A stretch of 64,000 bases of DNA, taken from contig DASXHH010000008.1 in NCBI GenBank assembly GCA_036488585.1, positions 3,069-67,068 of the forward strand, read 5' to 3'. Position 1 is the stretch's first letter; every line of letters begins with the position of its first letter. The notes below the pieces were generated by a model. The model was not told the DNA's origin and ran no database searches. It saw nothing but the letters and a program-made list of their open reading frames with translations. Both the position numbers and the translations under genes were made by a program. The stretch is from Candidatus Saccharimonadia bacterium. GTDB lineage: Bacteria > Patescibacteriota > Saccharimonadia > UBA4664. Of this stretch, positions 1,176-62,868 are shown piece by piece.

Positions 1176-1243
1176 TCCGCTTGCGCTTGCGTGACAACTC
1201 GACCATAAGCGGTATAATAATGGCGTATTAATGTATCAACCCA

Positions 1244-2151: not shown

Positions 2152-2186
2152 AACGAAGAGCTGCACATGAAGTGTGGCTCTTCGTT
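2152..2186. terminator. Hairpin between the convergent genes 1244-2149(+) and 2185-2391(-), a possible bidirectional terminator
   Basis: 10-bp stem aacgaagagc (2152-2161) pairs with gctcttcgtt (2177-2186) around a 15-nt loop. There is only a weak T-run. Confidence 0.3.
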
Positions 2187-7070: not shown

Positions 7071-7120
7071 TCACAACTCCTTACCATAAGCTTAATGGTT
7101 CAGAGTCTCAGAATCAAACG

Positions 7121-7738: not shown

Positions 7739-10700
7739 CTACTTACCCTTCATGCTGAAGGTGATCCGCCCGGCGTATGAGAAGGCGTTGTTCTTGGACG
7801 ACATATCAACCCGGAAAATGATGATGTCTCCTGGTGAGAACCCGCAGGTGTTAGGATCGGTTGCATATGATACTGTCTGCCACGTGTTCGCGGAAGTCGT
7901 AACATTAGTGGATGTCCCACAAGCAGCACCGCTGTTCTCGAATACCGAGTACGCGACATCTGCATCGGTGGTCGACGAGACCCGGCCCACCATCTTCAGC
8001 GTAGTCGAGTTCAGGAACCCGCCGAAGGTCGGCGGCAACTGGTACTTCACATAAATGCTATAGGTCTGAGCAGACACCTGTGAAGTCGTCCACTGGTAGT
8101 AGTTGAACTCCTCACCACTGTTAGCGCATAAGGTCGCGTTGATGCCCTGGGCGTTCGAGCAGATGTTGGCGGTCATGGTACCGATGTGCGTGTCCGTACC
8201 CACACCCGGGTTCAACACAGCGCCGGCGTATTCGGGCTCGAGAATCAGGTTCGAGTCAGGTGCAGCACCACATGAACCCCAGCCGTCCTTCTCATAGCAC
8301 TGGATGCGGCCAAGCGTAGTGCTGTAGTACATGGAACCGAGCATGTTCTGGTTCACAGCACCCGCGACCGGATCGTTGGCAAAAGAGTCGAGCTGGAAGA
8401 TGGTGAGACCCTGGCTCAAGGGACCACCCACCTGGAGCTCACCAGTGTTTAACGAACCCGAAGTGCTTTGGGCGCCGACAAACAAGTTGTCGATGTACAG
8501 GTGGCGCGTAGTAGCATCAGCTGCACGTATGCGGATGTGGTTGGCTGTAGTCTTCGCGGTCGCAGAGGTTGTGAAGTAGCAGGTCCACTTGAAGAACCCA
8601 GTGGTGGTAATGGTGCCGTTGTCCGGGGTGGTGCAAGTGGCGTCTAGGTTAGTGGCGTCTCTGTAGTACTCCACGATCAGGTTAGCATTGGTCGGCGCCG
8701 AGGTCCCGGCCTTGATGTTGAACGATACGTTGTACAGCTGACTAGTGGACAAAGCAGTGCCACTCAGGTCGTTGTCAGCGCCGCCGGCCCCAGTAAGGCT
8801 AATGTCTAGAGATCCAGTACCCGATGCCAGATTAGTGGCAGATATATTTCGTAACAACGAAGCGCTTCCGGTCGCGGTCCAGCCGGTCGTACCCGTACCC
8901 TCAAGGCCGCTGTTGTCGGCCAGGTTGGCACCCGTAGCGGTGTTAGTGGTGTCAACGTGCAGTACCGGAGCAGCCAAGCTGTTACCAATCTGGAACAGGT
9001 TGGCGTTGTCGTAACCAACACCCGCCTGGAAAAGCAGGTTCTTGGTGGCAGAAGTGGTGATAATGCCGGCCGGCGCTGTTGAGGTGTTGTCGTAAACCTG
9101 CTGCAACGAGGACGCAGTAGTGGTACCACTCCAGTTAGTTCCGTTCCAGATCAAAGTCGAGGTGTTACCGGCTCCCATGTTCACGCTCGAGGTCATACCG
9201 AACGCAGACAATGTAAATGACCCTGATCCAGAAGCCGCTGAAACCAAAACGATATGGCCCGGTGTGGTATTGGTCGGCGCCGGCAGGCTAACGATAGCGC
9301 CCGTAAAGGCCCCAGTCGTTACATTCACGACGATCGTGCCGTAGGTATCTACATCGGACTGGCTGACGTTGAAGGTCTGGGGGCTGCTGGACTGAGTAAA
9401 GCTCTCGCTATTCGAATTGAAGACCGGCGAGCCTAGGCTCACGATACCAGGCGAACCCGTGCCATGCGCTGTCCCAGCCGTCAGCGAAATGCTTCCGCCA
9501 GCGTTGTTGTTGGCCAGGGCGTTACCGCCCTGCAGTGTAATACTACCGCCTGCGCCCTGGCTACTAGCAGCACCGGAGCCGCCGTTGGTCGCCGCGATAA
9601 CCACTAATCCGCCCGCACCGCTCGAGCCCGCCGCACCGCCGGTCACGTGGACCGTACCACCGTTGCCGGTCCCCGCTCCGGCACCACCCACGACGTTCGA
9701 GTCGCCACCGGCCGTGTTACCGCCACCACCGGCGCCACCGGTCAGAGATGCCACACCGCCCGCGCCAGTTGTACCGCCGGCTCCAGCCACCAACACCAGG
9801 TTACCACCCGCGCCAGTGCCATTGCCGGCCGCCGACCGCACCGTCAGCTTGTTGCCAGCCGTGTTGGTCGCCGTCTGGTCATCCACCGCCAACACCCGGT
9901 CGGCACCAACCCCAAACTGCAAATCTATCCCACTCTGTACCGCAGGGTTGGTCGCCGTCCCGCCCACATTTATGCCCAATCCATAGCTCGTCACCGTCAA
10001 GATCGAGGCCCCCAGCGTATCACCCGTCTGTGCCGCCCGTACTCCAAACAATTCCTGGCCCGCGCTCATGCCCGACGAGATCGCCGACTGCACCGTCACC
10101 GCCTTGTTGGTCAACGTTTCCAAAATACTTGGCTGCGCACCGGCCGAGTTGTTATAGGCATCCTGCAGCTTCACTACGCTACCGGCCGAATTGAACGTCG
10201 TCGTCCAGTTGGAGCCATCATAGATCAGCATGATGATGTTACCTACCGGCACCGACTGACCCACTACCGTTATCGCACTGGTGGAAGCCACCAGATTGCT
10301 GATGTAAATGATCGAACCCGCCCCCGCCGTTGGTGTACCAATAGATGCAGATGTAAGCGTGGTCGTCCCTGTATCGGTAATCGTAAACGTCGTACAATCA
10401 TTCACGCTCTTAGGGGAGGTGAAAGATAATGTACCGGACGCGCCCGTGTACGCGCACACTACATTCTGCGTGGCACCATTGTTCTTAAATAAGGTCGACG
10501 AGCCAGTCGATCCCACTGTCACGCTATTATTGGCGATCAAATTGCCGGTCACGCCGCTAATCGTCACAGCCGTCGACAACGAGTTGGCTGACGAGCCAGT
10601 AGAGCCAGGCTTCGCAATCTTAAAGTTAATGTCGCCACCGTTGCCAGTACCGGTGCCGATCCCGCCGGCTATCGTAAAGCTGGCCCCAGCGATATTACTT

Positions 10701-13411: not shown

Positions 13412-13781
13412 ACCTTCACAACAGTTATGCTTAAATTCTAGCTCAAATCAGGTATAAACACAAGTAGTTTGAGTAAGGTAAAATCCACAACATGCCCGTT
13501 GAGATTGGCACCACCACCTCTTAGCACAACTCACAAATGTCCCGTGCAATTACCTATTGCAGTTCTCCGACAATCGAAACGGGCGACTATTCTTACGCTG
13601 TAAATTCAAACAGGGACCGCTCTCCCCTTTTCCATGCCAATTTCTGGCCTTTAACAAACATTTAACCTCCGTATACCTGGGGCTTGCCGCGCCAATTTTC
13701 TTGGCAATCGCCAATGCACCGTATCTGCCCACTGACTATTATTCCGGGTGTTCCTTATCAGAGAAGAAAGGAGGTAAGGAT

Positions 13782-13961
13782 ATGCCCGACACCAACAAAG
13801 AACCATCTAAGTCCAAGGACATGACTGTCCAAGAAGCCGGACGCCTGGGCGGACAACGCGAACGGGAGCTGGTTGAAGAAGGTCACCAGCGCGAGCACGC
13901 GGAAGGTCAGGACTTCGGCGAGAAGGTTGAACGCAAGTCCAAAGGCCGCCAGGAGGCCTAG
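13782..13961 (+). CDS. KGG-repeat general stress protein (YciG/GsiB-like), copy 1
   Basis: Strong SD aaggagg at 13768-13774 before the ATG at 13782. Protein MPDTNKEPSKSKDMTVQEAGRLGGQRE… has the same QEAG(R)xGG core as the two downstream copies. Confidence 0.6.
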   Translation: MPDTNKEPSKSKDMTVQEAGRLGGQRERELVEEGHQREHAEGQDFGEKVERKSKGRQEA

Positions 13962-13963
13962 TA

Positions 13964-14176
13964 ATGACCCGCGGAGTGGGAGGTAAAGGACCCGCCAATA
14001 TCATGAAGCACATGAAGGGCATCCACTTCCCCGCCAACAAGAACCAGGTGGTATCCCACGCCCGGCAGGGCGAAGGCCCGGATACTCAGGCCGTCGTGGC
14101 CGTGCTGGACCGCATCGAAGACCGCGAGTACGACAACCCCGCGGAGATACTAAAGCAAGTAGGGAGGATCGAATAA
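13964..14176 (+). CDS. DUF2795-family small protein
   Basis: MTRGVGGKGPANIMKHMKGIHFPANKNQVVSHA…DREYDNPAEILKQVG matches the DUF2795 pattern GGxGPANVxKYLKGIDFPAsKqdLi…dreYdsPadv as I recall it. Tightly packed with the KGG genes. Confidence 0.55.
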   Translation: MTRGVGGKGPANIMKHMKGIHFPANKNQVVSHARQGEGPDTQAVVAVLDRIEDREYDNPAEILKQVGRIE

Positions 14177-14364
14177 TGGCAAAGGACAAGACCAACAAGC
14201 AGATGACCGTACAGGAAGCCGGCCAGAGGGGTGGTGAAGCCACCAGTCAGAGCCACGGCCGCGAGTTTTACGAGGAGATCGGCCACAAGGGTGGCCAAAA
14301 GGGCGGGCAGCGCGTCCGCGAGCTGATCGAAGAGGGCAAAGAGGCCGAGAACGAGAAGAAATAA
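14176..14364 (+). CDS. KGG-repeat general stress protein, copy 2
   Basis: MAKDKTNKQMTVQEAGQRGGEATSQSHGREFYEEIGHKGGQKGGQRVRELIEEGKE shows stress-induced acidophilic (KGG) repeats. Near-identical to copy 3. Confidence 0.7.
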   Translation: MAKDKTNKQMTVQEAGQRGGEATSQSHGREFYEEIGHKGGQKGGQRVRELIEEGKEAENEKK

Positions 14365-14401
14365 CTATAGCTAACTTTCAACCACTAAGGAGGAAAAGAT
14401 T

Positions 14402-14608
14402 ATGGCAACTAGCAAGCGCAACCAGAACCAAGAGGGCACGATGAGCGTAAATGAGGCCGGCCGCCGCGGCGGTGAAGCCACCAGTCAAAGCCACGGCCGC
14501 GAATTTTACGAGGAGATTGGACAGAAGGGCGGCCAGCGCGTCCGCGAGCTGATCGAAGAGGGCAAAGAGGCCGAAGGCAACTCCGACAACCAGCGCTCTT
14601 CGCGCTAA
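14402..14608 (+). CDS. KGG-repeat general stress protein, copy 3
   Basis: SD aaggagg 8 nt upstream of the ATG. Protein …VNEAGRRGGEATSQSHGREFYEEIGQKGGQRVRELIEEGKEAEG. Confidence 0.7.
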   Translation: MATSKRNQNQEGTMSVNEAGRRGGEATSQSHGREFYEEIGQKGGQRVRELIEEGKEAEGNSDNQRSSR

Positions 14609-14650
14609 GCAGCCACGCCCAGCTGTACTAACACAAACACCCTACCCCTC

Positions 14651-14679
14651 GAGCGGCGCCGTAGCGCCGCTCTCTTTTT
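14651..14679 (+). terminator. Rho-independent terminator of the KGG/DUF2795 operon
   Basis: gagcggcgc(cgta)gcgccgctc hairpin at 14651-14672 followed by tctttttg. Confidence 0.6.
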
Positions 14680-14711
14680 GCTGTCCGCTTAACCTGTTAT
14701 GCTAAAAATCG

Positions 14712-15161
14712 ATGATACTATCTGGCAAACAACTCACGCTGTGCGTGGTTCTCGGAGTCCTCCTCGGCACTGGCATGATCGCCACTCACACCGGGCCCGG
14801 CCTCGCCGCTGACGTTGCCAACACGCCGCACAGCCGCAATACCGTGCGTCAAAACGACTTGAACACGCTGGCCCAAGCGCTGGCCCAATACAAAACCGAC
14901 CACACCGCTTTTCCTGTAAAACTCCCTGCCACCGACACACCCATTTGCACCAGCGCCGGCCAGGATTGCACCTCCAAGCACTACGCCGACCTCAGCTTCC
15001 TCATTACCGGCGGCGATTACCTCACCGCCATCCCGGTGGATCCAGGCCAGGCAGTTGGCCTCTGGGCCAGCGGCTACAACATCTCGCAGCTACCAGACGG
15101 CACCATCCGTCTTACCGCCCCCCAAGCCGAAGCTGGGGCCACCATCTCGGTCGTCCGCTAA
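14712..15161 (+). CDS. Secreted small protein with a pilin/pseudopilin-like segment (RQNDLNTLAQALAQYKTDHTAFP) and a Cys pair, possibly pilin-like
   Basis: N-terminal hydrophobic signal (LTLCVVLGVLLGTGMIA). The segment resembles the post-helix region of type IV pilins/GspG. No canonical G|FTLIE prepilin site. Its 3' end overlaps the convergent gene at 15112 by 50 nt. Confidence 0.35.
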   Translation: MILSGKQLTLCVVLGVLLGTGMIATHTGPGLAADVANTPHSRNTVRQNDLNTLAQALAQYKTDHTAFPVKLPATDTPICTSAGQDCTSKHYADLSFLITGGDYLTAIPVDPGQAVGLWASGYNISQLPDGTIRLTAPQAEAGATISVVR

Positions 15162-16080
15162 CGAGCCACCACACTCCGAGTCCCAGCATTGCCAATAACA
15201 GCACCGCCACCGCCCACAGCCACCAGGCGCCGGCGTACCAGAAGCTCACCCGCGCCGATTGCGTTGTGGTCGTGCCGTCGTACCGGTATACCGTGGTCGC
15301 CGTGTACCGGCCCGGCAGCCAGGCGTTGGCCAGCTGGACCAAGGGCGTCTGGTACCGCCGAAAACTTCCCGGCAAAATAATTCCTGAATCTTCATTGAGC
15401 GCGCCTCGCATCACCTGCCGGCCCAACGGGTCCTGGATCGTCACCGTCCCCCGCGGCACCACGTGCACTGCCCCGTCGTCCAAGAACCGTTCATTGACAT
15501 TAACTGGCAGACTCAGGGCTCCCCTGCCCCCCAGGGTTTGATCCACCAGCCTCAAATTTGGCGGAGCGCTACCATCCTTCAGCAAAAACAGAAGCGAGGA
15601 CAACACCTGCGTAATACCCACTCGCGAATTCTTGGCCGCATCCGTCGGGGCGGTCTGCGCTTCTGCCTCTAGTGCTGCGTAGTGGCCGCCCGACGCCAAC
15701 GACTGCGCATTATCAATCGTCATCCCAATCTGCACCGTGGCGCCGGCCGGCACCGTGGCATCGTGCTTGTCCAACGATACCCAGTTAGTAAGTCCGTGAG
15801 CTTTCTCGAAATCGCTCGTCGCATCGTTTAAAAATGCCACTCCTCCCGATTCGTCCAACGAACCAAAATCCTTAACCTCAAACCTGAACGTCTGGCTCAC
15901 CGCCGAATTGTTCGTCAACATCACCGTGTATTGCGCGCTCGCCTGGTTCTGGCCCAGACTCACCTCTTGGTACACTGGTGAGATTGTCAGCCCGGAGCCG
16001 CCACCAACCGCCAAACCAACTTGTGGCCAAGCCGCCCCCACCAGGGCCAGCGCCAGCCCCCTACTTACACGGCGCTTCAT
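15112..16080 (-). CDS. DUF916/CscA-like cell-surface protein (signal peptide, Ig-like body, C-terminal TM helix and basic tail), copy 2
   Basis: The ORF track starts at 16197, but the signal peptide begins at the in-frame ATG 16080 (MKRRVSRGLALALVGAAWPQVGLA). This ATG overlaps the upstream gene's TGA in an ATGA arrangement at 16077-16080. C-terminal WWLWAVAVLLLAMLGLGVWWLV plus an R-rich tail. Architecture matches DUF916 proteins of Gram-positive Csc/WxL loci. Confidence 0.5.
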   Translation of the reverse strand: MKRRVSRGLALALVGAAWPQVGLAVGGGSGLTISPVYQEVSLGQNQASAQYTVMLTNNSAVSQTFRFEVKDFGSLDESGGVAFLNDATSDFEKAHGLTNWVSLDKHDATVPAGATVQIGMTIDNAQSLASGGHYAALEAEAQTAPTDAAKNSRVGITQVLSSLLFLLKDGSAPPNLRLVDQTLGGRGALSLPVNVNERFLDDGAVHVVPRGTVTIQDPLGRQVMRGALNEDSGIILPGSFRRYQTPLVQLANAWLPGRYTATTVYRYDGTTTTQSARVSFWYAGAWWLWAVAVLLLAMLGLGVWWLVSGRPRWWPQLRLGGR

Positions 16081-17243
16081 CTGCGCTTGCCGAACTTGCG
16101 CACCACCTTTGTCCAGCCCATCGCCCGCCGCGCGCTCGAGTACAGTCCGAATCCGACCACCAACAGTATCGCCAGCACCACCAGCAGCATCCGCCACGGT
16201 ATCACCCAGAATGTCAGCGTACTCTCCATCGGCACATCATGCCCAAAATTATCAGGATAGGTAATTAACAGGTGCGCCGTGTACTCACCAAATCGGAAGT
16301 TAGTTAAGGGATTACGGCTTTGCTTTGCAATAAAATCATCCTCACCTGATGAAATTGCCGATGTCTTATCGGGCTCTGGCAGACCCCAATTTAGCACTCG
16401 CACCGGATTACCCTTTTTATCTATCTTGTTTTTACCGTCAATTTTTACGTCGTTGAAATATGGGAATCCATAATTCCACTCAGCACTAAAGGCCCGCGTG
16501 CTACCGCTTAGCACCATCCCCAGCTCTGAGTTTACAGTCACCAACCCAACCTGCTTATTACCCTGGGAAATGAATATGTTGCCACCGGGACGCACAAAGA
16601 CGTTGCCGTTATTTTTTAACCGCACCGTAAAATCAGTCGGCAGGAATTCCATCACTCGGTGTGCCACGCTGAATGTTGCCAGCTGAAGTGACCGGCTAGC
16701 GCCAGGACTGTCCACGCTCATCATCACCAGTACCGCCGTGCCACCGGCAATTCCGCTCTGTCCATTTCCCACCTTTATTGTGTCACCCACCCGGCTAAAC
16801 ACCACCGCGTAATAATAGGAGAAAGCCGCGGATTTAGGCACGTTTACGGTCATCTTCACCGTCTGCCAAACATCATTTGGCGCCGTAAATGTCGGCCGAT
16901 CAAACGTCACCCAATCAAAGTAATCGTCTCCCGGCCCCCGATCACTAAGTTTTGGCTGGCCCGTCTCCCCTGTGGCACTAAACTTCATCAAGCTTACCTG
17001 CAGCTGCTCGGTATCACCACCCGACTGCTTGATCTTGATGTCGGTGCTCGCACTCTGGCCGGGTTTCGTGTTGAGAACAATCGGCAAGGGCGAGGTAGTT
17101 AGCCTGAGCGGTGCGGTTGGCCGTGTCAGCGGTGTTGCGGTAGCCTTCGCCGCCTCAGCCACCCCGGTCCAAATCGGCGTTACCGGCCCCACTACCATCG
17201 CCACCGCCAAAAATAAAGCACCTAACATTTTTATATTGCCCAT
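16077..17243 (-). CDS. DUF916/CscA-like cell-surface protein (signal peptide, Ig-like body, C-terminal TM helix and K/R tail), copy 1
   Basis: N-terminal MGNIKMLGALFLAVAMVVGPVTPIWTGVAEA and C-terminal WRMLLVVLAILLVVGFGLYSSARR…KFGKRR. Body …IKIKQSGGDTEQLQVSLMKFSATGE… looks like the DUF916 N-domain. Confidence 0.55.
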   Translation of the reverse strand: MGNIKMLGALFLAVAMVVGPVTPIWTGVAEAAKATATPLTRPTAPLRLTTSPLPIVLNTKPGQSASTDIKIKQSGGDTEQLQVSLMKFSATGETGQPKLSDRGPGDDYFDWVTFDRPTFTAPNDVWQTVKMTVNVPKSAAFSYYYAVVFSRVGDTIKVGNGQSGIAGGTAVLVMMSVDSPGASRSLQLATFSVAHRVMEFLPTDFTVRLKNNGNVFVRPGGNIFISQGNKQVGLVTVNSELGMVLSGSTRAFSAEWNYGFPYFNDVKIDGKNKIDKKGNPVRVLNWGLPEPDKTSAISSGEDDFIAKQSRNPLTNFRFGEYTAHLLITYPDNFGHDVPMESTLTFWVIPWRMLLVVLAILLVVGFGLYSSARRAMGWTKVVRKFGKRR

Positions 17244-17259
17244 AACTGTAATTCTCCTT

Positions 17260-18381
17260 CTAGAAATAACCTGCCCCGACCACTGTTAGCGTATCAGTAT
17301 AGTCGGTGGCGGCTGGTGTAACGGATGTAATCGCAACACGCTCCTTTAGTAGCAAGGCGTCTCCATTTGAAGTGCCGCCCGCACATTGCCCTATCTGTTG
17401 GAAGTTAGCCGTGGCCGCTCCAGAATACCGGTCTGTGCCCAGCGGCGAACCATCAACCGAAGCGGTATTGTACTCCGGCGCCACCCCCATTGTGCAGGTA
17501 CTGGTACCGGAAGCAGCGATCGTCACTGCGAGTCCATACTTGCTCGAAACATTCGGCTGCAAATGCGTTGGTGCTGCCGCATTCCACCCCACGGATCCTA
17601 TCAATCCGGTGGAACCTCCAATACTCGTCGACTGCAAGCCTTGGTTGGCCGACTTCGCCCACGCCACCCACCCCTGCTTGGCGTTGGTGTGCACCGTCAC
17701 GGAAATACCTTGCGATTCGTTCACCGCTGTGTAATCCAAGTTGCCGGTATGAGGTACGGGATCGGTAGTGCCTCCCAGATCAAATTGGAAGATTGGCGGT
17801 ACCACCGCCGATACGTTAATTTGGTCCTGGCCGGTATCGACTACTGCAAATGCGATGTTGGCGCTATCGAGGTTCGTCGCTACATTTCCCCCCAGACTAC
17901 CAGACACGGTCGACCCGGTAACCAGCACCGACGAGTCCGTTAAGTTGAAGTTAAAGCAATACAGAGTACCAACAGTCAGTGTCATGGCCGGAGATACCGC
18001 AAAAGTGGCTGTCTTCGCCGAGTTATCCCCATCACCGTTTTGCACGTTTGTGAGTGCTGACGCCCCGCTCGGCCAGTACAGGTTACCAGAACCTACGCTG
18101 TCAGGGTCGGCAGTCGTGTTAGCTACAAAGTTTCCAGTTCCGGTAGCGAGCGTAAACGATGTCGGGAACTTGATTACCACGCTCGATGTCGAACCCGCGC
18201 TCGCCGGCTTAAAGCACACCGTGCCCCCGGTGTTCGTGCTCTTAGCCATTCGGTCCAACCGAACTAGAGCTACTTGAAGTTGACCGGCCTGAGCCCCACC
18301 CACCCACACTAAAGGGGTCAAAATGGTAGCCACAACCAACCAAACTCGCAGTCCTACTGACCGGCGCTGCCGCATGCACAC
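17260..18381 (-). CDS. Secreted protein with WxL-like C-terminal region (GWVAW…ATDYTDTLTVVGAGYF), paralog A
   Basis: Signal peptide (LRVWLVVATILTPLVWVGGAQA). Clear paralog of 18473-19756 (LVRLDRMAKSTNTGGTVCFK vs LVRLNRLHKNSVTGGTVCVK; NAKQGWVAWAKSAN vs NAKNGWVIWSKSAN). The tail YTDTLTVV resembles the WxL second motif YTGTLTWTL as I recall it. Confidence 0.5.
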   Translation of the reverse strand: MCMRQRRSVGLRVWLVVATILTPLVWVGGAQAGQLQVALVRLDRMAKSTNTGGTVCFKPASAGSTSSVVIKFPTSFTLATGTGNFVANTTADPDSVGSGNLYWPSGASALTNVQNGDGDNSAKTATFAVSPAMTLTVGTLYCFNFNLTDSSVLVTGSTVSGSLGGNVATNLDSANIAFAVVDTGQDQINVSAVVPPIFQFDLGGTTDPVPHTGNLDYTAVNESQGISVTVHTNAKQGWVAWAKSANQGLQSTSIGGSTGLIGSVGWNAAAPTHLQPNVSSKYGLAVTIAASGTSTCTMGVAPEYNTASVDGSPLGTDRYSGAATANFQQIGQCAGGTSNGDALLLKERVAITSVTPAATDYTDTLTVVGAGYF

Positions 18382-18472
18382 TCCATCACAAGTATGGAGG
18401 AATTATCTCAAAAGCATAAGCAGCTATCAAGCCCCTTATGCTTTATTTTGAGATTTGGCCCAGTCTATTGAC

Positions 18473-19756
18473 CTAGAAGTTACCTGCTCCCACAACTGTG
18501 AGGGTGTCGGTGTAGTCCGTAGCGGCTGGCACGTCCACCGTGATGGCTGCGCGTTCCTTGATGCTGATGGCACCACCGTTCGATGTTCCGCCAGGACAGC
18601 TCGCAATTTGCTGGAAGTTAGCGGTCATGGCGCCGGCATACTGGTCGTGCGCTGCTGGAGTGCCATCCAGGGTGCCGGTATTGTATTCCGGTGCCACCGC
18701 GATGGTACAGTGACCACCAGCTGAGGCTTGTGAAACTGACATGCCGTACAGTGGTGCAGTTGGAAAGTTCGGAGATGTAGCGTTGCTGTCGAGGTCCGTC
18801 GGCGCTCCGGTGTTCCAGGGGACCGAGGGTATGTTGGCGTTTGCGGCTACACCACCTGCCGAAGCCGATATCAAGCCATTGGTATTGTTAGCGCTCTTCG
18901 ACCATATCACCCAACCATTCTTGGCGTTGGTGTGGACCGTGGCGTTAACACCGCCCGAAGTGTTCACTACCTGGTAGTTCAAGTTACCAGCCGCCGGAAT
19001 GCTATCAGTGGTCGCACTCAGGTCGAATTGGAACAGCGGGGGCACGATGGCGTTTACAACGATCTGGTCTTTGCTCAAGGGGGTAGCCCCACCGGTGTCA
19101 TCCGAGATCTGCGTGGCCCAGTTGGTGCGCATTATGACGTTACCAGAGCCGGGAGTACCAGCAGTACCGGTGTTGTCGTAGGTGGCAATGTAGCCCGGGG
19201 TCGACTCGTCAAATCCAGCCGTGTCAGGCAGGGTCAGCGCCGCGCCAAAATCGAAGCAGTAAACTTTGTTGGCTGCCAGAGCGGTTGAATCGAACCGCAC
19301 GATTTTGTTCGTCGCATCCACACTATGGGCGTGCGCTGCAATCGAGGTCACACCGGGCCAGTCAGCCGCACCCGACGTGTAGTATAAAGACGTAGTTCCA
19401 TTCGGGGCATCCAAAGCGTCCGGGTCGGCAAAGGTCGTAGTACCGTTAGCGCTATGGGTCGTCACCGTCCAGTTGGTCGTCGTGGCGTTCAGGGTAAAGT
19501 TAGTGGTGGTCACGGTTGCCTGAACGGGGAAACCGATATCGACATAGGTTTCACCGCCTACGCCACTCGCTGGAGTCTTCACGCACACCGTACCGCCAGT
19601 CACCGAGTTCTTGTGTAGCCGGTTTAACCTCACAAGACCTGATGCAAACTGCGGCGTAGCAGCAAAGGCTGGAATTGCAGGCATTGAGGCCGAGACTATC
19701 AGCGACGCTATGGCCGAGATGATCAGTTGTCTTGATGTTGGCTTGAGTATTTTCAT
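18473..19756 (-). CDS. Secreted protein with WxL-like C-terminal region (…ATDYTDTLTVVGAGNF), paralog B
   Basis: Signal peptide (LIISAIASLIVSASMPAIPAFA). Same domain order and C-terminal tail as paralog A. Confidence 0.5.
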   Translation of the reverse strand: MKILKPTSRQLIISAIASLIVSASMPAIPAFAATPQFASGLVRLNRLHKNSVTGGTVCVKTPASGVGGETYVDIGFPVQATVTTTNFTLNATTTNWTVTTHSANGTTTFADPDALDAPNGTTSLYYTSGAADWPGVTSIAAHAHSVDATNKIVRFDSTALAANKVYCFDFGAALTLPDTAGFDESTPGYIATYDNTGTAGTPGSGNVIMRTNWATQISDDTGGATPLSKDQIVVNAIVPPLFQFDLSATTDSIPAAGNLNYQVVNTSGGVNATVHTNAKNGWVIWSKSANNTNGLISASAGGVAANANIPSVPWNTGAPTDLDSNATSPNFPTAPLYGMSVSQASAGGHCTIAVAPEYNTGTLDGTPAAHDQYAGAMTANFQQIASCPGGTSNGGAISIKERAAITVDVPAATDYTDTLTVVGAGNF

Positions 19757-19886
19757 TCTTTTCTGTGTGTTGATAACTTTTTGGTTTTGTTAACTCTTAA
19801 GCTTAAGTCTAACCAGCACCATCATAAGTGTCAACAACTTTTACAACAGTTTTTTCCACAACACCAGAAGAAACGCGAGCTTAAGC

Positions 19887-20945
19887 TCAATATGCGCCCG
19901 CCGCCACCACCGTCATCAAATCTGTATAGTCAGCTGAGGCCGGCGTGAGTGAGTTGCTCTTGGCCAACATATCCACCGATCCGCGCCCACCATGAATCGG
20001 GCCGGGCGTAATAAAGAGTTCCTGCAAATGCTGGTACACCGCGCCAATATTGGTTCCGCTCAGTCCGTACAAGCTGGCGACCGACAGTGGACCGCCCGAA
20101 GTCTGGGTCGCCGACACACCCTGCTGGCCGTAGCCTTCAGTCTGACTCGCCAGATCGCCCGCTACCGATGCGATCATATGCCCGGTAGAGCCGCTCAACA
20201 GGCCACCATTTTGGCCACCATCATAAACCATGGCACCGTTGTCGGCATTGGTCGCCAAACTCACCCAGAGCTTGTTGGTAGCTGTGATTACCGAACCCGC
20301 CAGCAAATCTCCAAAGTTTATCTGATACGGCGGGCTTGTAGAGGTATCTGTCGCCGCGGTATCGATATCAAAGGTTAAATATGGATCGACGGTCGATGCC
20401 GAAGACAGCGGTCCATAATCCGTCTCCGTAAACGACCCATGAATCGCCTTAGCCTTCACACTGTAAACCGTACTCCGGTTTAGCCCCCTCAGCATTGCGC
20501 CAGTGGCACCACCCCAAGCCGCGTAGGTCAGATAATCCGCCCCCGTCAGTGTCGACCCCACGGTGAAATCACTCTTCACATACTGGGTGGTGGTAAAGTT
20601 ATCGGTCGAAATAGCCACCGCAAACTTTGCATCCGACGGGTTATTTTGAGGATCAATTATGACTTTAAGCTTGTCATACCACTCAGCATCATTCGAAATC
20701 GTAATTATTGGCACGTTGGCTTGTTTCACGTAATTCTCACCTGCTCCCACCTTGTAATGCGCGCTACTGCCAGATCCTGCCTGCTCGCCGGTTAACCCGT
20801 TCACTCGATAATTCGCCGAGGCCGAGTTGCTTGTGCCGCCACCCCCAAACCCATAAGAATTAAGTTTGAAATTACTACTTGCCGGCAACGACGCTAACAG
20901 CAACAAGCTAACGTTTATCAGTGCCCCTTTCATCCCTGCCACCAC
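19887..20945 (-). CDS. Secreted protein with WxL-like C-terminal region (NKLWVSL…ADYTDLMTVVAAGAY), paralog C
   Basis: Signal peptide (LINVSLLLLASLPASS). N-terminal Gly/Ser-rich SANY/SSNY repeats like the 294-1175 protein. Related C-terminal tail. 5' end overlaps the upstream gene by 16 nt. Confidence 0.45.
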   Translation of the reverse strand: MVAGMKGALINVSLLLLASLPASSNFKLNSYGFGGGGTSNSASANYRVNGLTGEQAGSGSSAHYKVGAGENYVKQANVPIITISNDAEWYDKLKVIIDPQNNPSDAKFAVAISTDNFTTTQYVKSDFTVGSTLTGADYLTYAAWGGATGAMLRGLNRSTVYSVKAKAIHGSFTETDYGPLSSASTVDPYLTFDIDTAATDTSTSPPYQINFGDLLAGSVITATNKLWVSLATNADNGAMVYDGGQNGGLLSGSTGHMIASVAGDLASQTEGYGQQGVSATQTSGGPLSVASLYGLSGTNIGAVYQHLQELFITPGPIHGGRGSVDMLAKSNSLTPASADYTDLMTVVAAGAY

Positions 20946-21670
20946 AGACTATCCTGTACCGTCCTGAGGTAGCCCGCCAAGTCACCACCCGAGGTACTTG
21001 TCACTGCCACGGTCACTAGCATCCCAGCATGCGCCCAATACAGAGTGTGCTCCGAGCCATCCTTCTTCACCATTATCTCGGCTGGCTCACCCAGTACCTT
21101 GGTCGGACTCGCGGGTTCATAATCCTTGCTCACAGCTGTCCGCCACAGGTACCCCGAATCATCCTGCAACTGACCACTGGGCAATTTCGACACCGTCACC
21201 GCGATCTGTGCACCCGACCCATCATGTTGAAGCAGAACGTAGCCCTCGAGGCCGGCCTTAATATCCCGCACCGGCCGCGAATCGCTAAACGTCTGCGGAT
21301 ACGAAAACGAGATGTGCAAGCCTTTAATCGACGGCAGTACCGACGATGACGGCGCAATACTGGCCTTAGCCTCACCCAACACTTTGCTTTGATCCGGCCC
21401 AGCTGATACCGCACCGTTCACAAAATTTAGTAGAAACACGATGCAAAACCCAAACACCGCCCCCACCACCCCCAGCGTCACCCACACTCCTGGCCGCCAC
21501 AGCCGCCGCCGGCGGCCCTCACCCTCCTCGACTTCAGCCTCAGCCACTTCCCGATTATGGCCATCCTCCGGCTCCTTACCCTCCGCCACCGTCTTCACGA
21601 AATGCTCGGGAGTCACACCGTGCAACTCCGCCAGATGGTGCACCATCTTCCGCATCTCATCATCGGTCAT
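20930..21670 (-). CDS. Single-pass membrane protein with an acidic cytoplasmic N-domain and an extracellular C-domain (anti-sigma-factor-like topology); hypothetical
   Basis: MTDDEMRKMVHHLAELHGVTPEHF…EVEEGEGRRRR, then a TM (WVTLGVVGAVFGFCIVFLL), then a ~150-aa outside domain. Function not recognisable. Confidence 0.45.
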   Translation of the reverse strand: MTDDEMRKMVHHLAELHGVTPEHFVKTVAEGKEPEDGHNREVAEAEVEEGEGRRRRLWRPGVWVTLGVVGAVFGFCIVFLLNFVNGAVSAGPDQSKVLGEAKASIAPSSSVLPSIKGLHISFSYPQTFSDSRPVRDIKAGLEGYVLLQHDGSGAQIAVTVSKLPSGQLQDDSGYLWRTAVSKDYEPASPTKVLGEPAEIMVKKDGSEHTLYWAHAGMLVTVAVTSTSGGDLAGYLRTVQDSLWWQG

Positions 21671-22680
21671 GCCAGCGCCGCCAATCGTTTCTCCATAATG
21701 TGCTTCTCACGCCGCTCGCCCAGCCAGAATGAAATAATCATCAGAAGCAACACGATCCAAATCGGCCAGATTACAATCAGCTTATTAAGCGCGCTGTTAT
21801 TGTTGCTCGCGCCACTGCCCGAGGTGGTCGCCCCCTTAGCTGGATTCACAATCGTGGTCAGCTGTAGGTACGCCGTATGACCAGCCCCATCGGTCGCCCG
21901 AATAATCAGCGGAAACGTGTTCAAATATCCGGTCCCAACCTTCTGATACGTATGCTTCACCGTAAACGGCCCCGGCGCCAGGCGCGTAATAAGATCGGTC
22001 GTGCCATCACCCCAATCAACGCTCACCGCGTACGGCGCCTGTCCGCCCACGATCTCTATCGGCCACGTAATTTCCTGCCCCGGCGTCGTCCCCCGGTAGT
22101 AGTTCTCAGACTGCAGCAACAGCTCCGTCGAAAATCCTGGACCACCCGGTGGCTCATTCAGCGTCACGGTAACAGTGTTACCTGTTGGTCCCTGTTGATC
22201 GATAGTGTTAAACGGCAGCGCCGTCAGATCATTGCGCCCAATCACCAAGTCCACCGGCACCGTAAAGTGTCCGCTCGCACTACAAATCACACTGCCCACC
22301 AGAATCCCGTTGGTGAACACCTTAATCAGAGCTCCTGCCGGACAGGTTCCCGTCACCGTCACTGGGTTCGTGCTAAAGCTCTGCCCACCCGTCGGTGACG
22401 TAATAATCGCTGGCTTGCTCGGCCGCGGCGGTGGTACCACCGCATTAACGTTAATGTTATTGTCCGCGCAGGCGTTGTGGACCCCCGGGTTGATCGGCGA
22501 ATTCTGGTTGTCTTGTTCGCTACATAGTACGGACGGATCCACCGCCAGCGCCGACCGGGTAATGCTGCCCAAAAACAACCCCGCCACCAGCAACATAAAC
22601 ACTAGTAACGCATACGACGTGTCGCGATGATCCGACAACCGCCCACTTAATTTGTGGTTCAACCTCGGAAACACAAGCAT
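21667..22680 (-). CDS. Membrane-anchored PKD-domain protein (N-terminal anchor, PKD-like domain, C-terminal TM)
   Basis: VDWGDGTTDLITRLAPGPFTVKHTYQKVGTGY fits the PKD signature (WDFGDG…HTY). N-terminal TM (ALLVFMLLVAGLFLGSI) and C-terminal TM (LIVIWPIWIVLLLMIISFWL). 4-nt overlap with the downstream gene. Confidence 0.55.
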   Translation of the reverse strand: MLVFPRLNHKLSGRLSDHRDTSYALLVFMLLVAGLFLGSITRSALAVDPSVLCSEQDNQNSPINPGVHNACADNNINVNAVVPPPRPSKPAIITSPTGGQSFSTNPVTVTGTCPAGALIKVFTNGILVGSVICSASGHFTVPVDLVIGRNDLTALPFNTIDQQGPTGNTVTVTLNEPPGGPGFSTELLLQSENYYRGTTPGQEITWPIEIVGGQAPYAVSVDWGDGTTDLITRLAPGPFTVKHTYQKVGTGYLNTFPLIIRATDGAGHTAYLQLTTIVNPAKGATTSGSGASNNNSALNKLIVIWPIWIVLLLMIISFWLGERREKHIMEKRLAALA

Positions 22681-22713: not shown

Positions 22714-23256
22714 CTACTCGCTCGAAAGCGTACCGTAACCCTCGATAATCATCACTTCTTGCACTGCCATATCAGCCGCCTGATCCACCCCCGCACAAGC
22801 ACTCGCAGGAGTTTCGTACACATAGTCATAACCGCCAAACGAGCCTTTCAGTATCCCCTGCCGTTCTGCCAACTTAGCGCCGGCACTACCCGTAGCTAGT
22901 CTCACCAACGCCCCTGCCGCGTTCTGTCCAGCAGAGCACTTTGAACCGTAATGTTCGAGCGCCGCCGTTGAAAGTCCTATGCTATCCGACCCTTCTACCG
23001 CGTACTCCAGCAAGGATGAGCCTGTTCCCAGTGGCAGCGATAGCTGTACACCCCAATCCTTAATGTCCACCCGTTGCATCGCGTTTCCCACCACCATCGC
23101 CGAAGCCTCGCGCGCATTCAGCTCCTCCGCCGCCACTTGATGAAATTGATCAAACACAGACGCTGCCACCGTAAACACCAGTGCCACCCCCAATGACAGC
23201 GCCAACGCCGAACCCAAACTCTGCACAGCCGCCAAAGATTTACCCGACGATTCCAT
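22714..23256 (-). CDS. Secreted/anchored hypothetical protein (180 aa), first gene of the minus-strand surface run
   Basis: Signal anchor (LGSALALSLGVALVFTVAASV). No recognisable domain. Confidence 0.4.
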   Translation of the reverse strand: MESSGKSLAAVQSLGSALALSLGVALVFTVAASVFDQFHQVAAEELNAREASAMVVGNAMQRVDIKDWGVQLSLPLGTGSSLLEYAVEGSDSIGLSTAALEHYGSKCSAGQNAAGALVRLATGSAGAKLAERQGILKGSFGGYDYVYETPASACAGVDQAADMAVQEVMIIEGYGTLSSE

Positions 23257-23374
23257 CTATCGGACCTCACATACCTATATATCAAGCTTATGCTTCACAG
23301 TGGTTCGAGTCAATTGCTCCAGCCAACCACAAGCGGTATGATACAAAAGACTAATTGTGTGAGCGCAGTTTCTG

Positions 23375-24439
23375 ATGGCCGACGAGCCCAAACCCAAAGA
23401 AAACGCCAAAAACGGCCAAACCGAGGCCCCATCTTCGGCCGCCCTGTCCCCCGCGCCCACCGTCGTGGCCGGCGACAGCACCAAACCGGCCGCCGACCCC
23501 AACAGCCGCATCCAGGCCGAGCCGCTGTCCGACGGCACCGTCCCTACCGTGCTCACGCCTGGCCAAACCCACCACTCGGTAGCCAAGAGCAAAGCTTCGC
23601 TCACCACCATCTACCGCAAGGCCGACATCATGACCACCCTACTCACTTTTGGCGGCGCCGTGGTGGCCGGAGCCATCATCATTGGCGGCTACATCTACTT
23701 CACCAAGAGTAGAGCCCCAACCCCAACGGCTACTCCCAAGGTCACCAACCTTAGCCAGTCCGACCTCTCCAAGCTCCAGACCTTCTTCCAGGGCAACTCC
23801 GCCGGCAGCTCAGCTGAGGTCCTCACCATTAGTTCATCCTCGCTTTTCAAAAACCGCGTCGCCGTCAGCTCCGACCTCAAAGTCACCGGCGGAGTCTCAG
23901 TCGACGGCACCACCAATCTTGGCGACCTCAATGTCGACAAAACCTCCACGCTTGGCGTAGTTAACACTCGTGGCCAACTCACCGTAGGCGGCCCGCTCAC
24001 CGTCCAATCCCCCGCTCTCTTCAACGCCGGCGCTTCGTATAAAGGCAGCATCTCGGCCACCGGCAACGGTTCCTTCGGCGGCTCACTTTCGGCCGGCAGC
24101 ATTAGTGTCGGCACCCTGTCCGTTACACAGCTCAACATCAACGGCCACTTCAGTCTTGGCGGTCAGGCCCCTTCGGCCTCAAACGGCCAAATCGGCGTCG
24201 AGAGCAACGACTCGGCCGGCTCTGTCACCGGCGTCACCGGCTCTGCCCCCGGAGACCTCGTTACCATCACCTTCCACACCGCCTTCCCGGTTGTGCCCAC
24301 CATTATCATCACGCCCGTCGGCGCCAACAGCGCCAAGGCCATGCCTTACCTTACAAACCTCACTGCCTCCAGTTTCACCATTGGGGCAGCCGGCACCGCC
24401 ACCGGTCCCTTCAGCTTCAATTATTGGGTCATCCAGTAG
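23375..24439 (+). CDS. Membrane-anchored beta-helix-repeat protein with a C-terminal H-type-lectin-like domain (paralog of 1244-2149)
   Basis: TM (TLLTFGGAVVAGAIIIGGYIYF). Repeats LKVTGGVSVDGTTNLGDLNVDKTSTLGVVNTRGQLTVGGPLTV. C-terminal VTITFHTAFPVVPTIIITPVG…LTASSFTIG…FSFNYWVIQ aligns by eye to the HPA H-type lectin core ([22 protein letters not shown]…SPTGFKAS…SISWISIE). Confidence 0.55.
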   Translation: MADEPKPKENAKNGQTEAPSSAALSPAPTVVAGDSTKPAADPNSRIQAEPLSDGTVPTVLTPGQTHHSVAKSKASLTTIYRKADIMTTLLTFGGAVVAGAIIIGGYIYFTKSRAPTPTATPKVTNLSQSDLSKLQTFFQGNSAGSSAEVLTISSSSLFKNRVAVSSDLKVTGGVSVDGTTNLGDLNVDKTSTLGVVNTRGQLTVGGPLTVQSPALFNAGASYKGSISATGNGSFGGSLSAGSISVGTLSVTQLNINGHFSLGGQAPSASNGQIGVESNDSAGSVTGVTGSAPGDLVTITFHTAFPVVPTIIITPVGANSAKAMPYLTNLTASSFTIGAAGTATGPFSFNYWVIQ

Positions 24440-24694
24440 TAATTAGCGCGAAACTGATTCGACTTGAGCAGCCGGCTGGTGCGCATTCGCATGCGCCGCA
24501 CCGCTAAGAGCCGGGCCAAACAACTCTGCCGCCAGGGCTGCCAGCACGACCACAACATATTTCAGTTTTGATTTCTGCATTTGCATTTTTATGTTAGTCA
24601 CTGTCTTCCCGTAGCCTAACGGAATATACTTTCGGCTGTCAAATAATGACGGCGCCAGTTCAGGCCCCCGGTCTCTTCACTCCACCATCAAAAA

Positions 24695-24719
24695 AATAGG
24701 CCCGGAGGCCTATTTTTTT
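24695..24719. terminator. Bidirectional rho-independent terminator; overlaps the rplU stop codon and lies downstream of 23375-24439
   Basis: aataggcc(cgga)ggcctatt hairpin flanked by A6 on one side and T7 on the other. Confidence 0.65.
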
Positions 24720-30927: not shown

Positions 30928-31207
30928 AACTGCTCCTCATAAAACAAAAACCATCCGGACTTGCGCAGGGACCTTTTCAGGCGGTACCACCCTGCTTTCC
31001 AGATGGACACTTCATTCTTCTCGCTTAACGTCCGAGACTATTACGTCGGGTTCTACTTGCCTGCCCTTCAGCTGGCGTTCTTCCTGCAGCTTTCGCGGTT
31101 GATAGCCGCTCACTCTTTCGAGACGCTTTTAGCTTGTTGTAGGTATACAATACCACATTTATTGGAAGGCGCCTAGCGTTTCAAGTGGGTAAATAATCCG
31201 CTTATGC
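30928..31207 (-). promoter_or_regulatory. T-box riboswitch leader of ileS
   Basis: On the minus strand AGGGTGGTACCGCC (plus 30981-30994) matches the conserved T-box AGGGUGGNACCGCG. A long hairpin (CCATCTGGA…GCAGGG / CCCTGC…TCCGGATGG) and TTTTTGTTTT follow, then SD GAGGAG and the ileS ATG. The 280-nt leader fills the whole intergenic gap. Confidence 0.55.
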
Positions 31208-31810
31208 TTAGGGCTTCACCCCGTACCGCACGTGCGTAACAACCGGGGTTGAGTGGACATCCAGCACCTTCAGCTTCTGCGTCGAAACATCCTCAAATAA
31301 CCGCTTGCCATCACCAAAAATTACCGGCGCTATGTGGAGCCACAGTTCGTCGATCAGACCAGCCGCCAGATATTGGTTGACGGTATCGGCACCGCCCATG
31401 ATCGCCACGTCACGGTCGCCAGCGGCTTCTCGAGCCTGGCGCAGCGCCGACTCGATGCCATCGGTCACAAAGTAGAATGTGGTGCCGCCTTCCATCTCTA
31501 TAGGCTCGCGCTCGCGATGCGTAAGCACGAAGACCGGCGCATGATATGGCGGGTTGTCGCCCCACCACCCGCGCCAGGTTTTATCGTAGGTGGCGCCGAT
31601 GGGACCGTACATGTTGCGGCCGATTATAAAGGCACCGGCATCGGTCAGCGATTTGAGCTCAGCGGTGTGCTTGCCCTGCTCGGCTTCATCAAACTGCCAA
31701 TTATGTAGCAGTTCCGGCTGCATATCGCCAAACGGGTGCTCTTCGGTCATACGATGCCCGGCCACGCAATTATCAACCGAGACCGAGATACTACATTTTA
31801 CTTTAGCCAT
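31208..31810 (-). CDS. Dihydrofolate-reductase-family protein (RibD C-terminal domain / YwjB-like reductase)
   Basis: …AFIIGRNMYGPIG…PVFVLTHRE…FVTDGIESALRQAREAAGDRDVAIMGGADTVNQYLAAGLIDELWLHIAPVIFGDGKRLFE fits the RibD_C/DHFR fold family pattern. Confidence 0.6.
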   Translation of the reverse strand: MAKVKCSISVSVDNCVAGHRMTEEHPFGDMQPELLHNWQFDEAEQGKHTAELKSLTDAGAFIIGRNMYGPIGATYDKTWRGWWGDNPPYHAPVFVLTHREREPIEMEGGTTFYFVTDGIESALRQAREAAGDRDVAIMGGADTVNQYLAAGLIDELWLHIAPVIFGDGKRLFEDVSTQKLKVLDVHSTPVVTHVRYGVKP

Positions 31811-62797: not shown

Positions 62798-62868
62798 GCC
62801 ATTCCGCTTATGCTCGACACGCAATTTACCACCGAGCTATATTAACTACTAAGCAAATCTACAGGAGG

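Follow-up and report, generated by a model that had tools for sequence, protein, structure and literature searches.

The open reading frame (ORF) at 23375-24439 (+) of a 64-kb stretch of a Candidatus Saccharimonadia metagenome-assembled genome (Patescibacteria/candidate phyla radiation, CPR) encodes a member of a conserved family of N-terminally anchored stalk proteins with a lectin-like head. We refer to the whole 64-kb stretch as the window, to this gene as copy 2, and to its paralog at 1244-2149 (+) as copy 1. Each of the two genes lies beside an operon of the Pam pilus type, and the two share a promoter element. In the interpretation toward which we lean, with somewhat better than even confidence, the product is a cell-anchored, probably trimeric fiber with a carbohydrate-binding head, co-regulated and co-inherited with the Pam-type pilus and used for close-range attachment to the host.

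Copy 2 is a genuine ORF of 354 aa, identical to NCBI VGH44_02285, which is annotated as hypothetical. No start codon precedes its ATG in the open frame, and orthologs keep the N-terminus MADEPKP. A database search returned at least 141 full-length homologs with 45-90% identity, from Saccharimonadia or Patescibacteria for every source name given. The layout of the protein was read from an alignment of 53 orthologs:

23375-24439 (+), copy 2, N-terminally anchored stalk protein with a lectin-like head (homolog search, 53-sequence alignment)
23516-23554 (+), signature motif AEPLSDGTVPTVL, aa 48-60, in the presumably cytoplasmic N-terminal tail (53-ortholog alignment)
23612-23701 (+), juxtamembrane motif YRKAD (aa 80-84) and a single transmembrane (TM) helix (aa ~85-109) (AlphaFold2 (AF2), hydropathy)
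23756-24160 (+), neck helix (aa 128-138, SDLSKLQTFFQ) and ~120-aa Gly/Val/Thr-rich repeat stalk with a bactofilin-like periodicity (AF2, Pfam)
24161-24436 (+), C-terminal head, aa ~263-354, a beta-sandwich of the H-type-lectin / tail-fiber-foot class (AF2, Foldseek, profiles)

The 85-aa N-terminal tail is of low complexity and carries the near-invariant motif [ED][PA]LxDGTxPT[VI]L (aa 48-60), in which L51, D53, G54, T55, and P57 are invariant. Written as a regular expression, this motif matched only copy-2 orthologs across all fetched loci and the window, and copy 1 does not have it. AF2 predicts a helix at aa 77-110, and the mean Kyte-Doolittle hydropathy is 2.3 at the TM segment. Lysine plus arginine counts across the 53 sequences are 3.7 for the N-flank of the TM segment versus 2.3 for the C-flank, a modest bias that, together with analogy, modestly favors an N-in/C-out topology. 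The conserved neck is predicted as a helix at aa 128-138. The stalk (aa ~140-262) has no secondary structure and no strands in the AF2 monomer (predicted local distance difference test, pLDDT, 46-74); an unfolded stalk would be expected in a monomer model of an obligate oligomeric fiber and fits one, without being proof. The conserved C-terminal domain of the orthologs ends in ...F.YWV.Q. Copy 2 had no match in Pfam, NCBIfam, or PHROGs, nor by phmmer against the PDB, and so received no direct family assignment.

Copy 1 has the same architecture:

1244-2149 (+), copy 1, 301-aa paralog VGH44_02195, same TM/stalk/head architecture with a short N-tail (BLASTP)

The pairwise alignment proposed in the initial annotation bore out its claim of paralogy: BLASTP aligned aa 81-354 of copy 2 with aa 18-301 of copy 1 at 28% identity (E 2e-21), collinearly from the TM helix to the C-terminus. 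The copy-1 orthologous group has at least 287 matches, several of which lie on the same long contigs as copy-2 orthologs, and each paralog is thus its own separate, widely conserved orthologous group. By blastn, the copy-1 and copy-2 loci have no DNA similarity beyond an 18-nt promoter element. As this element is all that the loci have in common at the DNA level and as the two groups are separately conserved, the duplication is ancient and the pair is not the boundary of an insertion. A recent duplication can therefore be dismissed, as can a duplicated insertion boundary, the alternative offered in the initial annotation.

Pam pilus families come from a 2026 preprint by Troman et al. (bioRxiv 10.64898/2026.03.03.709456), in which the Ca. 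Mycosynbacter amalyticus filaments were solved. The minus-strand genes beside the two stalk genes are as follows, from left to right:

294-1148 (-), PamT-type tip pilin at the head of module 1, the canonical pam operon, and divergent from copy 1 (NCBIfam)
2460-7070 (-), Kelch-repeat protein of 1536 aa (like the next two, a large surface protein at the distal end of the minus-strand run of module 2)
7121-7726 (-), 201-aa protein
7739-13411 (-), giant protein of 1890 aa, whose N-terminus is conserved beside the chaperone-like gene in relatives
15112-~16080 and 16077-17243 (-), a paralogous pair of PamC/D-like architecture, both with a signal peptide and a TM segment at the C-terminus (translations)
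17260-18381 and 18473-19756 (-), two paralogous pilin-like genes with the C-terminus ..DYTDTLTVVGAG.F (translations)
19887-20945 (-), PamT-like gene of module 2 (weak NCBIfam PamT match)
20930-21670 (-), unknown gene of module 2 (conserved order)
21667-22680 (-), PamR-like pilus anchor, RbmA-like, with a C-terminal TM helix (NCBIfam NF058578)
22714-23256 (-), 180-aa protein VGH44_02280 without assigned function, first gene of the operon divergent from copy 2 (homologs at the same position in loci L005, L008, L009, and L016 of relatives)

The PamT-type gene matched the full NCBIfam PamT model with 178 bits and CPR_Pam_pilin_C with 107.7 bits (cut-off 55). Only this gene and the start of the second gene of the canonical operon lie inside the window, the remainder being off its left end; the complete module 1 is visible in four fetched loci (L025, L027, L028, and L030). 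In relatives, PamT is followed by three Pam pilin C proteins (85-166 bits), chaperone-like genes, PamR (298.8 bits), and a giant protein. Copy 1 adjoins PamT divergently in six of six loci (L023, L025, L027, L028, L030, and the window). In module 2, the PamR-like gene matched NF058578 at E 1.9e-85 with 286 bits, the cut-off being 300, and VGH44_02280 had no Pfam, NCBIfam, or PHROG match. The gene order of module 2 (15112-21670) is conserved in L001-L022, and its architectures match the Pam components given by Troman et al. (10.64898/2026.03.03.709456). On all 18 related contigs with enough flank, the copy-2 ortholog lies beside PamR, with the 180-aa gene intervening in some; L21 and FtsW genes are on the opposite side. 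Beyond PamR, relatives carry the unknown gene, the PamT-like gene, two pilin-like genes, two genes of PamC/D architecture, and a giant protein.

Five genomes, the window and four others, have the layout pam operon 1 (-), copy 1 (+), Kelch/giant proteins and pam-like operon 2 (-), copy 2 (+), L21. Each stalk gene partners the operon on its own upstream (left) side, so that the region is made of two tandem modules, each a pam operon with its own divergently transcribed stalk gene, rather than of one island between bookends. The earlier view that the paralogs bracket everything from 2185 to 23256 thus stands in part: the paralogs do flank the block, and the layout recurs in the four other genomes, whereas the bookend arrangement gives way to tandem modules. 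The block had also been called Csc-like; no CscA (DUF916/DUF3324) or WxL Pfam match was found in it at E <= 0.01, and NCBIfam Pam families match instead.

The pilin-like genes of module 2 are 67% identical in DNA at their 3′ ends (17260-17497 and 18473-18710), their proteins end in ATDYTDTLTVVGAG(Y/N)F, and the PamT-type protein at 294-1148 closes with the related ending ..YSGSMTLVATGTY. These common endings connect the divergent pilins of module 2 with the Pam pilin C domain despite the absence of an NCBIfam match. We also noted that the ORF listed at 15112-16197 (-) overlaps its upstream neighbor (16077-17243, -) by 120 nt; this first chaperone-like gene probably starts at an internal Met before the signal-peptide-like MKRRVSRGLALALVGAAW, near 16080.

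The two stalk genes also share a promoter element. Their promoters and the hairpins near their ends are:

1191-1218 (+), copy 1 promoter: GTGACA, 16-nt spacer, TATAAT, containing ACCATAAGCGGTATAAT (18-mer match, position weight matrix)
2152-2186 (+), 15-bp hairpin directly after the copy 1 stop, with a poor U-tract; the 111-nt segment around it folds at z -4.5
23314-23342 (+), copy 2 promoter: TTGCTC, 17-nt spacer, TATGAT, with the conserved spacer element ACCACAAGCGG, kept upstream of orthologs
24690-24719 (no strand assigned), bidirectional intrinsic-terminator-like hairpin of A7, a 6-bp GC stem, and T7 (-15.6 kcal/mol, z -4.3)

With up to 3 mismatches, the 18-mer has two matches only in the window, at 23325-23342 and 1201-1218, where 0.03 are expected. 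Throughout 539 kb of fetched loci, matches to the element lie almost exclusively upstream of copy-1 and copy-2 orthologs. The position weight matrix scored the copy 2 site at 28.1 bits and the copy 1 site at 26.8, against 14.6 for the best unrelated site. Fifteen of the 18 promoter bases are kept between paralogs that are only 28% identical as proteins, and this conservation argues that the element ACCAYAAGCGGTATRAT would serve a shared, specific regulator or sigma factor. A form of it, RACCAYAAGCGGTATRAT, fills the spacer and -10 box in both stalk families (1201-1218 and 23325-23342 in the window; L001/L003, L004, L007, L008, L016, L020, L025/L026, and L028). Some 20-30 nt downstream of RACCAYAAGCGGTATRAT there is often TTGTGAGC, which forms an inverted repeat with CACAAG in several loci; this arrangement could be an operator or a specialized sigma-factor site. 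The degenerate sequence RSCAYAAGCK is modestly enriched (8 matches versus 2.5 expected; 1 of 100 shuffles reaches 8), with sites at 231-240, 7083-7092, 23285-23294(-), 31199-31208(-), 55442-55451(-), and 62805-62814(-). Five of its matches are in intergenic gaps of the pam region, and some are near-palindromes around AAGCTT, an example being ACCATTAAGCTTATGGT, which precedes the Kelch gene. The motif may be a promoter or operator feature common to the pilus region, the enrichment for a wider regulon being only modest. As for the hairpin terminator that the initial annotation placed after each copy, the one after copy 1 was recovered, whereas the 90 nt past the copy 2 stop hold no better-than-random hairpin (z +1.0); the nearest, at 24690-24719, is 250 nt downstream and abuts the L21 gene.

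Adjacency to PamR (18/18) and PamT (6/6), the two-module layout in five genomes, and the shared promoter together support a coupling of the stalk protein to the pili. In a different explanation, the main rival, the stalk protein is a structural or assembly part of the Pam-type pilus, serving as membrane platform, as anchor, or as a guide through the wall. Its head would then bind not the host but one of the pilus subunits or a wall polymer of the cell itself. Each paralogous pam operon has its own paralogous stalk gene beside PamR or PamT, the promoter type is common to both stalk genes, the ectodomain is short, and the conserved tail motif suggests a partner across the membrane. In addition, the published Pam model contains no dedicated envelope machinery, only PamR as a proposed anchor (10.64898/2026.03.03.709456). 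The variable loops of the head and its occurrence on unrelated giant surface and phage proteins, described below, better fit a modular receptor-binding tip. Adjacency to a pam operon is conserved across genomes, whereas homology to PamA-E, PamT, PamR, or the pilin C domain was not found: neither copy had an NCBIfam Pam match at E <= 0.1, nor did the copy-1 ortholog of L028 at E <= 0.01. There are no Ig-like or donor-strand features either, and the operon components named by Troman et al. (10.64898/2026.03.03.709456) do not include the protein. We therefore judge a structural role in the pilus unlikely. A more specific version would make the stalk-lectins dedicated, co-evolving platforms or tethers of Pam pili, each nucleating, guiding, or anchoring one pilus type, with the copy-2 tail motif ([ED][PA]LxDGTxPT[VI]L plus YxxAD) coupling biogenesis to a cytoplasmic partner. 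We hold this to be less probable still; if true, it would supply the envelope machinery missing from the current Pam model.

The adhesin interpretation that we prefer depends on the head. In the full-length AF2 model built with the family alignment, the head (~95 aa) has a pLDDT of 94-98, and modeled alone it is a small beta-sandwich (pLDDT 91.5, predicted TM-score 0.82). Foldseek of the head model against 350,542 PDB chains returned as its top group the R1/R2 pyocin fiber foot and the C-terminal domains of the LKA1 gp49, phi297, and Sf6 tailspikes. The matches to the pyocin foot and tailspike C-terminal domains (6cl6, 6ct8, 4ru4, 7eea, and 9k4a) had probabilities of 0.96-1.00 and TM-scores (TMq) of 0.47-0.54. 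The Klebsiella phage K64-1 depolymerase (TMq 0.54) and the cyanophage Pam1 tailspike (TMq 0.52, root-mean-square deviation 2.9 Å, 77 columns) were also found. The lectins HPA, Helix aspersa agglutinin (HAA), SLL-2, and discoidin II are within the top ~40 PDB chains, as weak matches (TMq 0.41-0.47, E 0.13-1.4). In BFVD, a database of predicted viral structures, the uncultured Caudovirales protein A0A6J5N1S0 matched at E 2.7e-7 (TMq 0.84, 29% identity). Many further BFVD matches are named tail fiber, "H-type lectin domain," or "K1 lyase C-terminal domain," those named "H-type lectin domain" having TM-scores of 0.44-0.56 and E-values of 0.01-0.03. The closest fold relatives of the head are thus phage tail-fiber and tailspike C-terminal domains. 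Two structural papers on pyocin fibers place much of this fold set in a single jellyroll type that is trimeric, binds polysaccharides, and has a variable "distal loop network" (PMC6363177, PMC6116203). Four proteins from viral bins (A0A6J5N1S0, A0A6J5T5J5, A0A481Z0X9, and A0A481YZS4; uncultured Caudovirales and "Marseillevirus LCMAC202" bins) have heads near-identical in fold (TMq 0.68-0.84, 22-29% identity), which suggests either a tip module exchanged between bacterial surface proteins and phages or bacterial contamination of the bins.

At the sequence level, the head profile had 4 matches at E <= 10 among 177,635 PDB sequences: LKA1 gp49 (4ru4) at E 0.027 and three HPA entries at E 0.7-1.2. 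The C-terminal alignment with HPA drawn in the initial annotation was reproduced, as the head segment VTITFHTAFPVVPTIIITP aligned with HPA in both hmmsearch and hhalign, albeit marginally (E 0.7-1.2, hhalign probability 44%). In the profile search, xVTFxxxYxxxPxVxxx of the head aligned with HPA, as did GNDSAG with CGDDAG of HPA, and the head-HPA sequence alignments span 19-50 columns. The HPA sequence used in hhalign was confirmed against the PDB. The Pfam H_lectin family (PF09458, gathering threshold 24 bits) matched 35 of 110 relatives at E <= 1, within the C-terminal head; the best, P0301, reached 23.4 bits over profile positions 2-60 of 67. The head is therefore probably a remote homolog in the H-type-lectin / tail-fiber-foot fold class and not a demonstrable member of Pfam H_lectin. 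What was first described as a second H-type-lectin-like stalk protein keeps its paralogy, its H-type-lectin-like head, and its tie to surface-appendage genes, whereas membership in the H-type lectin family falls short at the PF09458 threshold. The paralogs do not occur independently of their neighbors, the synteny being kept in relatives, and a lectin-class fold is supported, in line with the initial annotation.

The head family is large. At E <= 1e-3, its profile matched 4,897 cluster representatives (clusters at 50% identity), and at E <= 1e-10 the number was 1,516. The head is at the C-terminal end in all but one of the 150 matches listed, in proteins of 100 to ~4,000 aa, the exception being P0251 (4,529 aa), which the profile matches via internal repeats. 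In one relative, a pam-associated giant protein of 4,651 aa has this stalk and head as its C-terminus (L027, 11554-12300, -; hhalign 97.8%), whereas the giant protein (7739-13411) and the Kelch protein of the window have no head domain. Cysteine-bearing heads have exactly two cysteines in 25 of 31 cases. Residues F300, P308, F334, F348, Y350, W351, and Q354 are conserved, and the F..Y...P.V loop and core residues are kept. Indels among copy-2 orthologs fall after residues 269, 292, and 341, and entropy in the ortholog alignment is high at 317-323 and 340-345, so that alternate loops (after 292, 317-323, and 340-345) hold the indels and the high entropy. By analogy, the most variable loops would form one ligand-binding end. 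The presence of the head on the C-termini of giant surface proteins, the paired cysteines, and the variable alternate loops support an extracellular tip role. Through this family, surface proteins of Saccharimonadia and related bacteria are connected with the tips of phage tail fibers. In some members, a Peptidase_S74 domain (endosialidase / tail-fiber intramolecular chaperone) lies upstream of the stalk and head (P0259 aa 885-936, P0379 aa 294-340, and P0337 aa 2-36); this domain is usually placed at the C-terminus.

These results are consistent with the following arrangement of the adhesin. The N-terminal tail with its family-specific motif would sit in the cytoplasm, and one membrane anchor would hold the protein. 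A short helical neck would be followed by a thin beta-repeat stalk, probably an oligomer and, as in its structural relatives, most likely a trimer, which would present the distal beta-sandwich head outside with its variable, putatively ligand-binding loops. Long Pam pili would make the first contact with the host bacterium, and the short lectin fiber would then give close-range, glycan-specific docking, similar to the division of work between long and short phage tail fibers.

Several points weigh against this interpretation. The PDB fold matches are all non-significant (E > 0.03, TM 0.4-0.54), hhalign of two head profiles against HPA gave 34-44% probability over 19-24 columns, and a broader 38-sequence head profile weakened the PDB matches and lost HPA altogether. 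Neither copy 2 nor copy 1 has a PF09458 match at E <= 1, and the sugar-binding residues of the head are not mappable from the HPA alignment. The topology is predicted from a modest charge bias and from analogy. The stalk is poorly modeled, which leaves its length and oligomeric state unsupported by the model, and an ectodomain of ~245 aa might fall short of the exterior of the cell wall or S-layer. Co-location is linkage and not cooperation in adhesion, and a strict one-to-one pairing with operons equally fits a structural pilus component. Finally, Troman et al. (10.64898/2026.03.03.709456) mention in passing an unnamed "tail fibre-like protein" that is consistently co-located with pam operons; the stalk family is a candidate for this protein, for which the main text and supplement give no accession.

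The fold relatives of the head raise the question of whether copy 2 could be a remnant phage or tailocin tail-fiber gene, or whether the pair could be the duplicated boundary of an inserted island. The tail-fiber and tailspike tips that are its closest structural relatives, the Peptidase_S74 domain on some family members, and transposase genes nearby in some relatives all point in this direction. Against it, a PHROGs scan of six genes gave nothing significant, the sole match being a weak one to copy 1 (E 0.0018), and copy 2 keeps its place between PamR and L21/FtsW in ~18 species-level genomes. The 28% identity of the paralogs, the lack of DNA repeats beyond the promoter, and the separately conserved orthologous groups (at least 141 and at least 287 matches) likewise speak against an insertion boundary. 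An N-terminal TM anchor is not a feature of phage fibers, and we count this on the same side. Copy 2 has this anchor and no N-terminal baseplate domain, and its neighbors are pam genes, L21, and FtsW, not a virion or tailocin cluster. On this context and the lack of a significant PHROG match among the six genes, we reject a prophage origin, and the chance that any form of the phage or insertion scenario holds is, in our estimate, close to negligible.

The stalk in turn brings up the bactofilins. In this explanation, the protein would belong to the cytoskeleton as a bactofilin-type element tethered to the membrane, would have its C-terminal part on the inner side, and would act in cell division or shape. 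Pfam Bactofilin (PF04519) matched copy 1 at 17.1 bits (E 0.0066) and, below threshold, 60 of 110 relatives (best E 7.8e-6); some members are named CcmA/bactofilin by the Joint Genome Institute (JGI), and a cytoskeletal role would account for the place of copy 2 beside L21, FtsW, FtsZ, and FtsA, as dcw-type genes lie downstream. Yet the scores shown (17.1 and 13.3 bits) are all under the cut-off of 27.9, copy 2 itself has no match to the family, and AF2 builds no beta-helix. Heads of this class bind receptors outside the cell, are found on giant surface proteins, and often carry paired cysteines, and copy 1 has the same architecture without being near division genes. An 85-aa charged N-tail without a signal peptide is unlikely to be exported, which we also list against this explanation. 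Altogether, a cytoskeletal function appears very improbable.

Other features of the region touch these conclusions less directly. Between the giant-protein and chaperone-like genes, a 1.7-kb plus-strand insert (13412-15161) separates genes that are ~100 nt apart in relatives such as L001. It contains:

13964-14176 (+), DUF2795 gene (58.5 bits)
14176-14364 and 14402-14608 (+), two KGG stress-protein genes, 82% identical (domain scan)
14712-15161 (+), 149-aa ORF with an N-terminal hydrophobic segment

Contrary to the initial annotation, the first 24 kb thus hold plus-strand genes besides the two stalk genes. A candidate 52-aa ORF at 24443-24601 (-), with an N-terminal hydrophobic segment (MTNIKMQMQKSKLKYVVVVLAALAAELFGPALSG...) and no Pfam match, occupies part of the 250 nt that separate copy 2 from the shared terminator. 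Relatives show rearrangements near the stalk genes. In an 828-kb contig (L001/L003, 10001-12949), copy 2 lies between an unknown gene and PamR, with an IS1595 transposase alongside. Two genomes have Y1 transposase genes immediately after copy 1 (L027, 10908-11477; L028, 10914-11471), and in L025 and L030 copy 1 is followed by cohesin-domain genes.

From a biological perspective, CPR/Patescibacteria are obligate episymbionts, and their recognition of hosts is largely unexplained. The stalk-lectin is a concrete candidate for glycan-specific host docking next to a pilus published in 2026 without an identified adhesin (10.64898/2026.03.03.709456), and it is also a possible missing piece of the pilus machine. 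The authors of the preprint state that they do not know how Pam pilins recognize the host. Lectin-headed fibers and the Pam system are already known, and the stalk family is annotated only as hypothetical. Apparently new, in that we found none of them described, are how large the head family is, the promoter element common to both stalk genes, the N-terminally membrane-anchored architecture, and its fixed pairing with each of the two pam operons, themselves paralogous. A literature search combining Saccharibacteria or Patescibacteria with "H-type lectin," tail-fiber-like, and bactofilin gave no such description among its best 15 results. The accessible parts of the preprint contain no mention of the two-module organization, the stalk pairing, or the shared promoter, and searches for lectin and bactofilin in its text and supplement gave nothing.

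Compared with known systems, the stalk gene is linked to the Pam system by its neighbors, namely PamR, PamT, Pam pilins, and PamC/D-like membrane-anchored proteins. It differs in that the stalk protein is not among the named Pam components and has no described role, and in that copy 2 is accompanied by a paralogous operon that has diverged from the canonical pam operon. The resemblance to bactofilins is the Gly/Val-rich, ~18-residue periodicity of the stalk, which gives rise to the weak profile matches; unlike bactofilins, the stalk protein scores below threshold, has no predicted beta-helix, is predicted to be extracytoplasmic, and bears a receptor-binding head.

With H-type lectins (HPA, HAA, SLL-2, and discoidin I/II), the head probably shares a fold class, on weak matches (TM 0.41-0.47), and relatives come just under the PF09458 threshold. 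Copy 2 itself has no PF09458 match, and its head is shorter than HPA in the loop regions and is carried on a stalk with a TM anchor. H-type lectins are homotrimers whose distal loops form a GalNAc/GlcNAc site at the subunit interfaces, an arrangement that could at most be extended to the head by analogy. The nearest likeness is to the receptor-binding tips of phages and tailocins (the R1/R2 pyocin fiber, LKA1 gp49, phi297, and the AP22 fiber), which gave the best PDB and BFVD fold matches; LKA1 gp49 is also the sole near-significant sequence-profile match of the head (E 0.027). As in these tips, the domain is at the extreme C-terminus of a fibrous region and has variable alternate loops around a conserved core. 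The head is, however, smaller, at ~95 aa, its L1 and L5 loops are very short in the copy-2 clade, and its similarity to PDB entries is sub-significant. In contrast to the phage and tailocin fibers, the stalk protein would be anchored to the cell through its N-terminal TM helix, with no baseplate attachment, and its gene is chromosomal, with conserved synteny beside a pilus operon.

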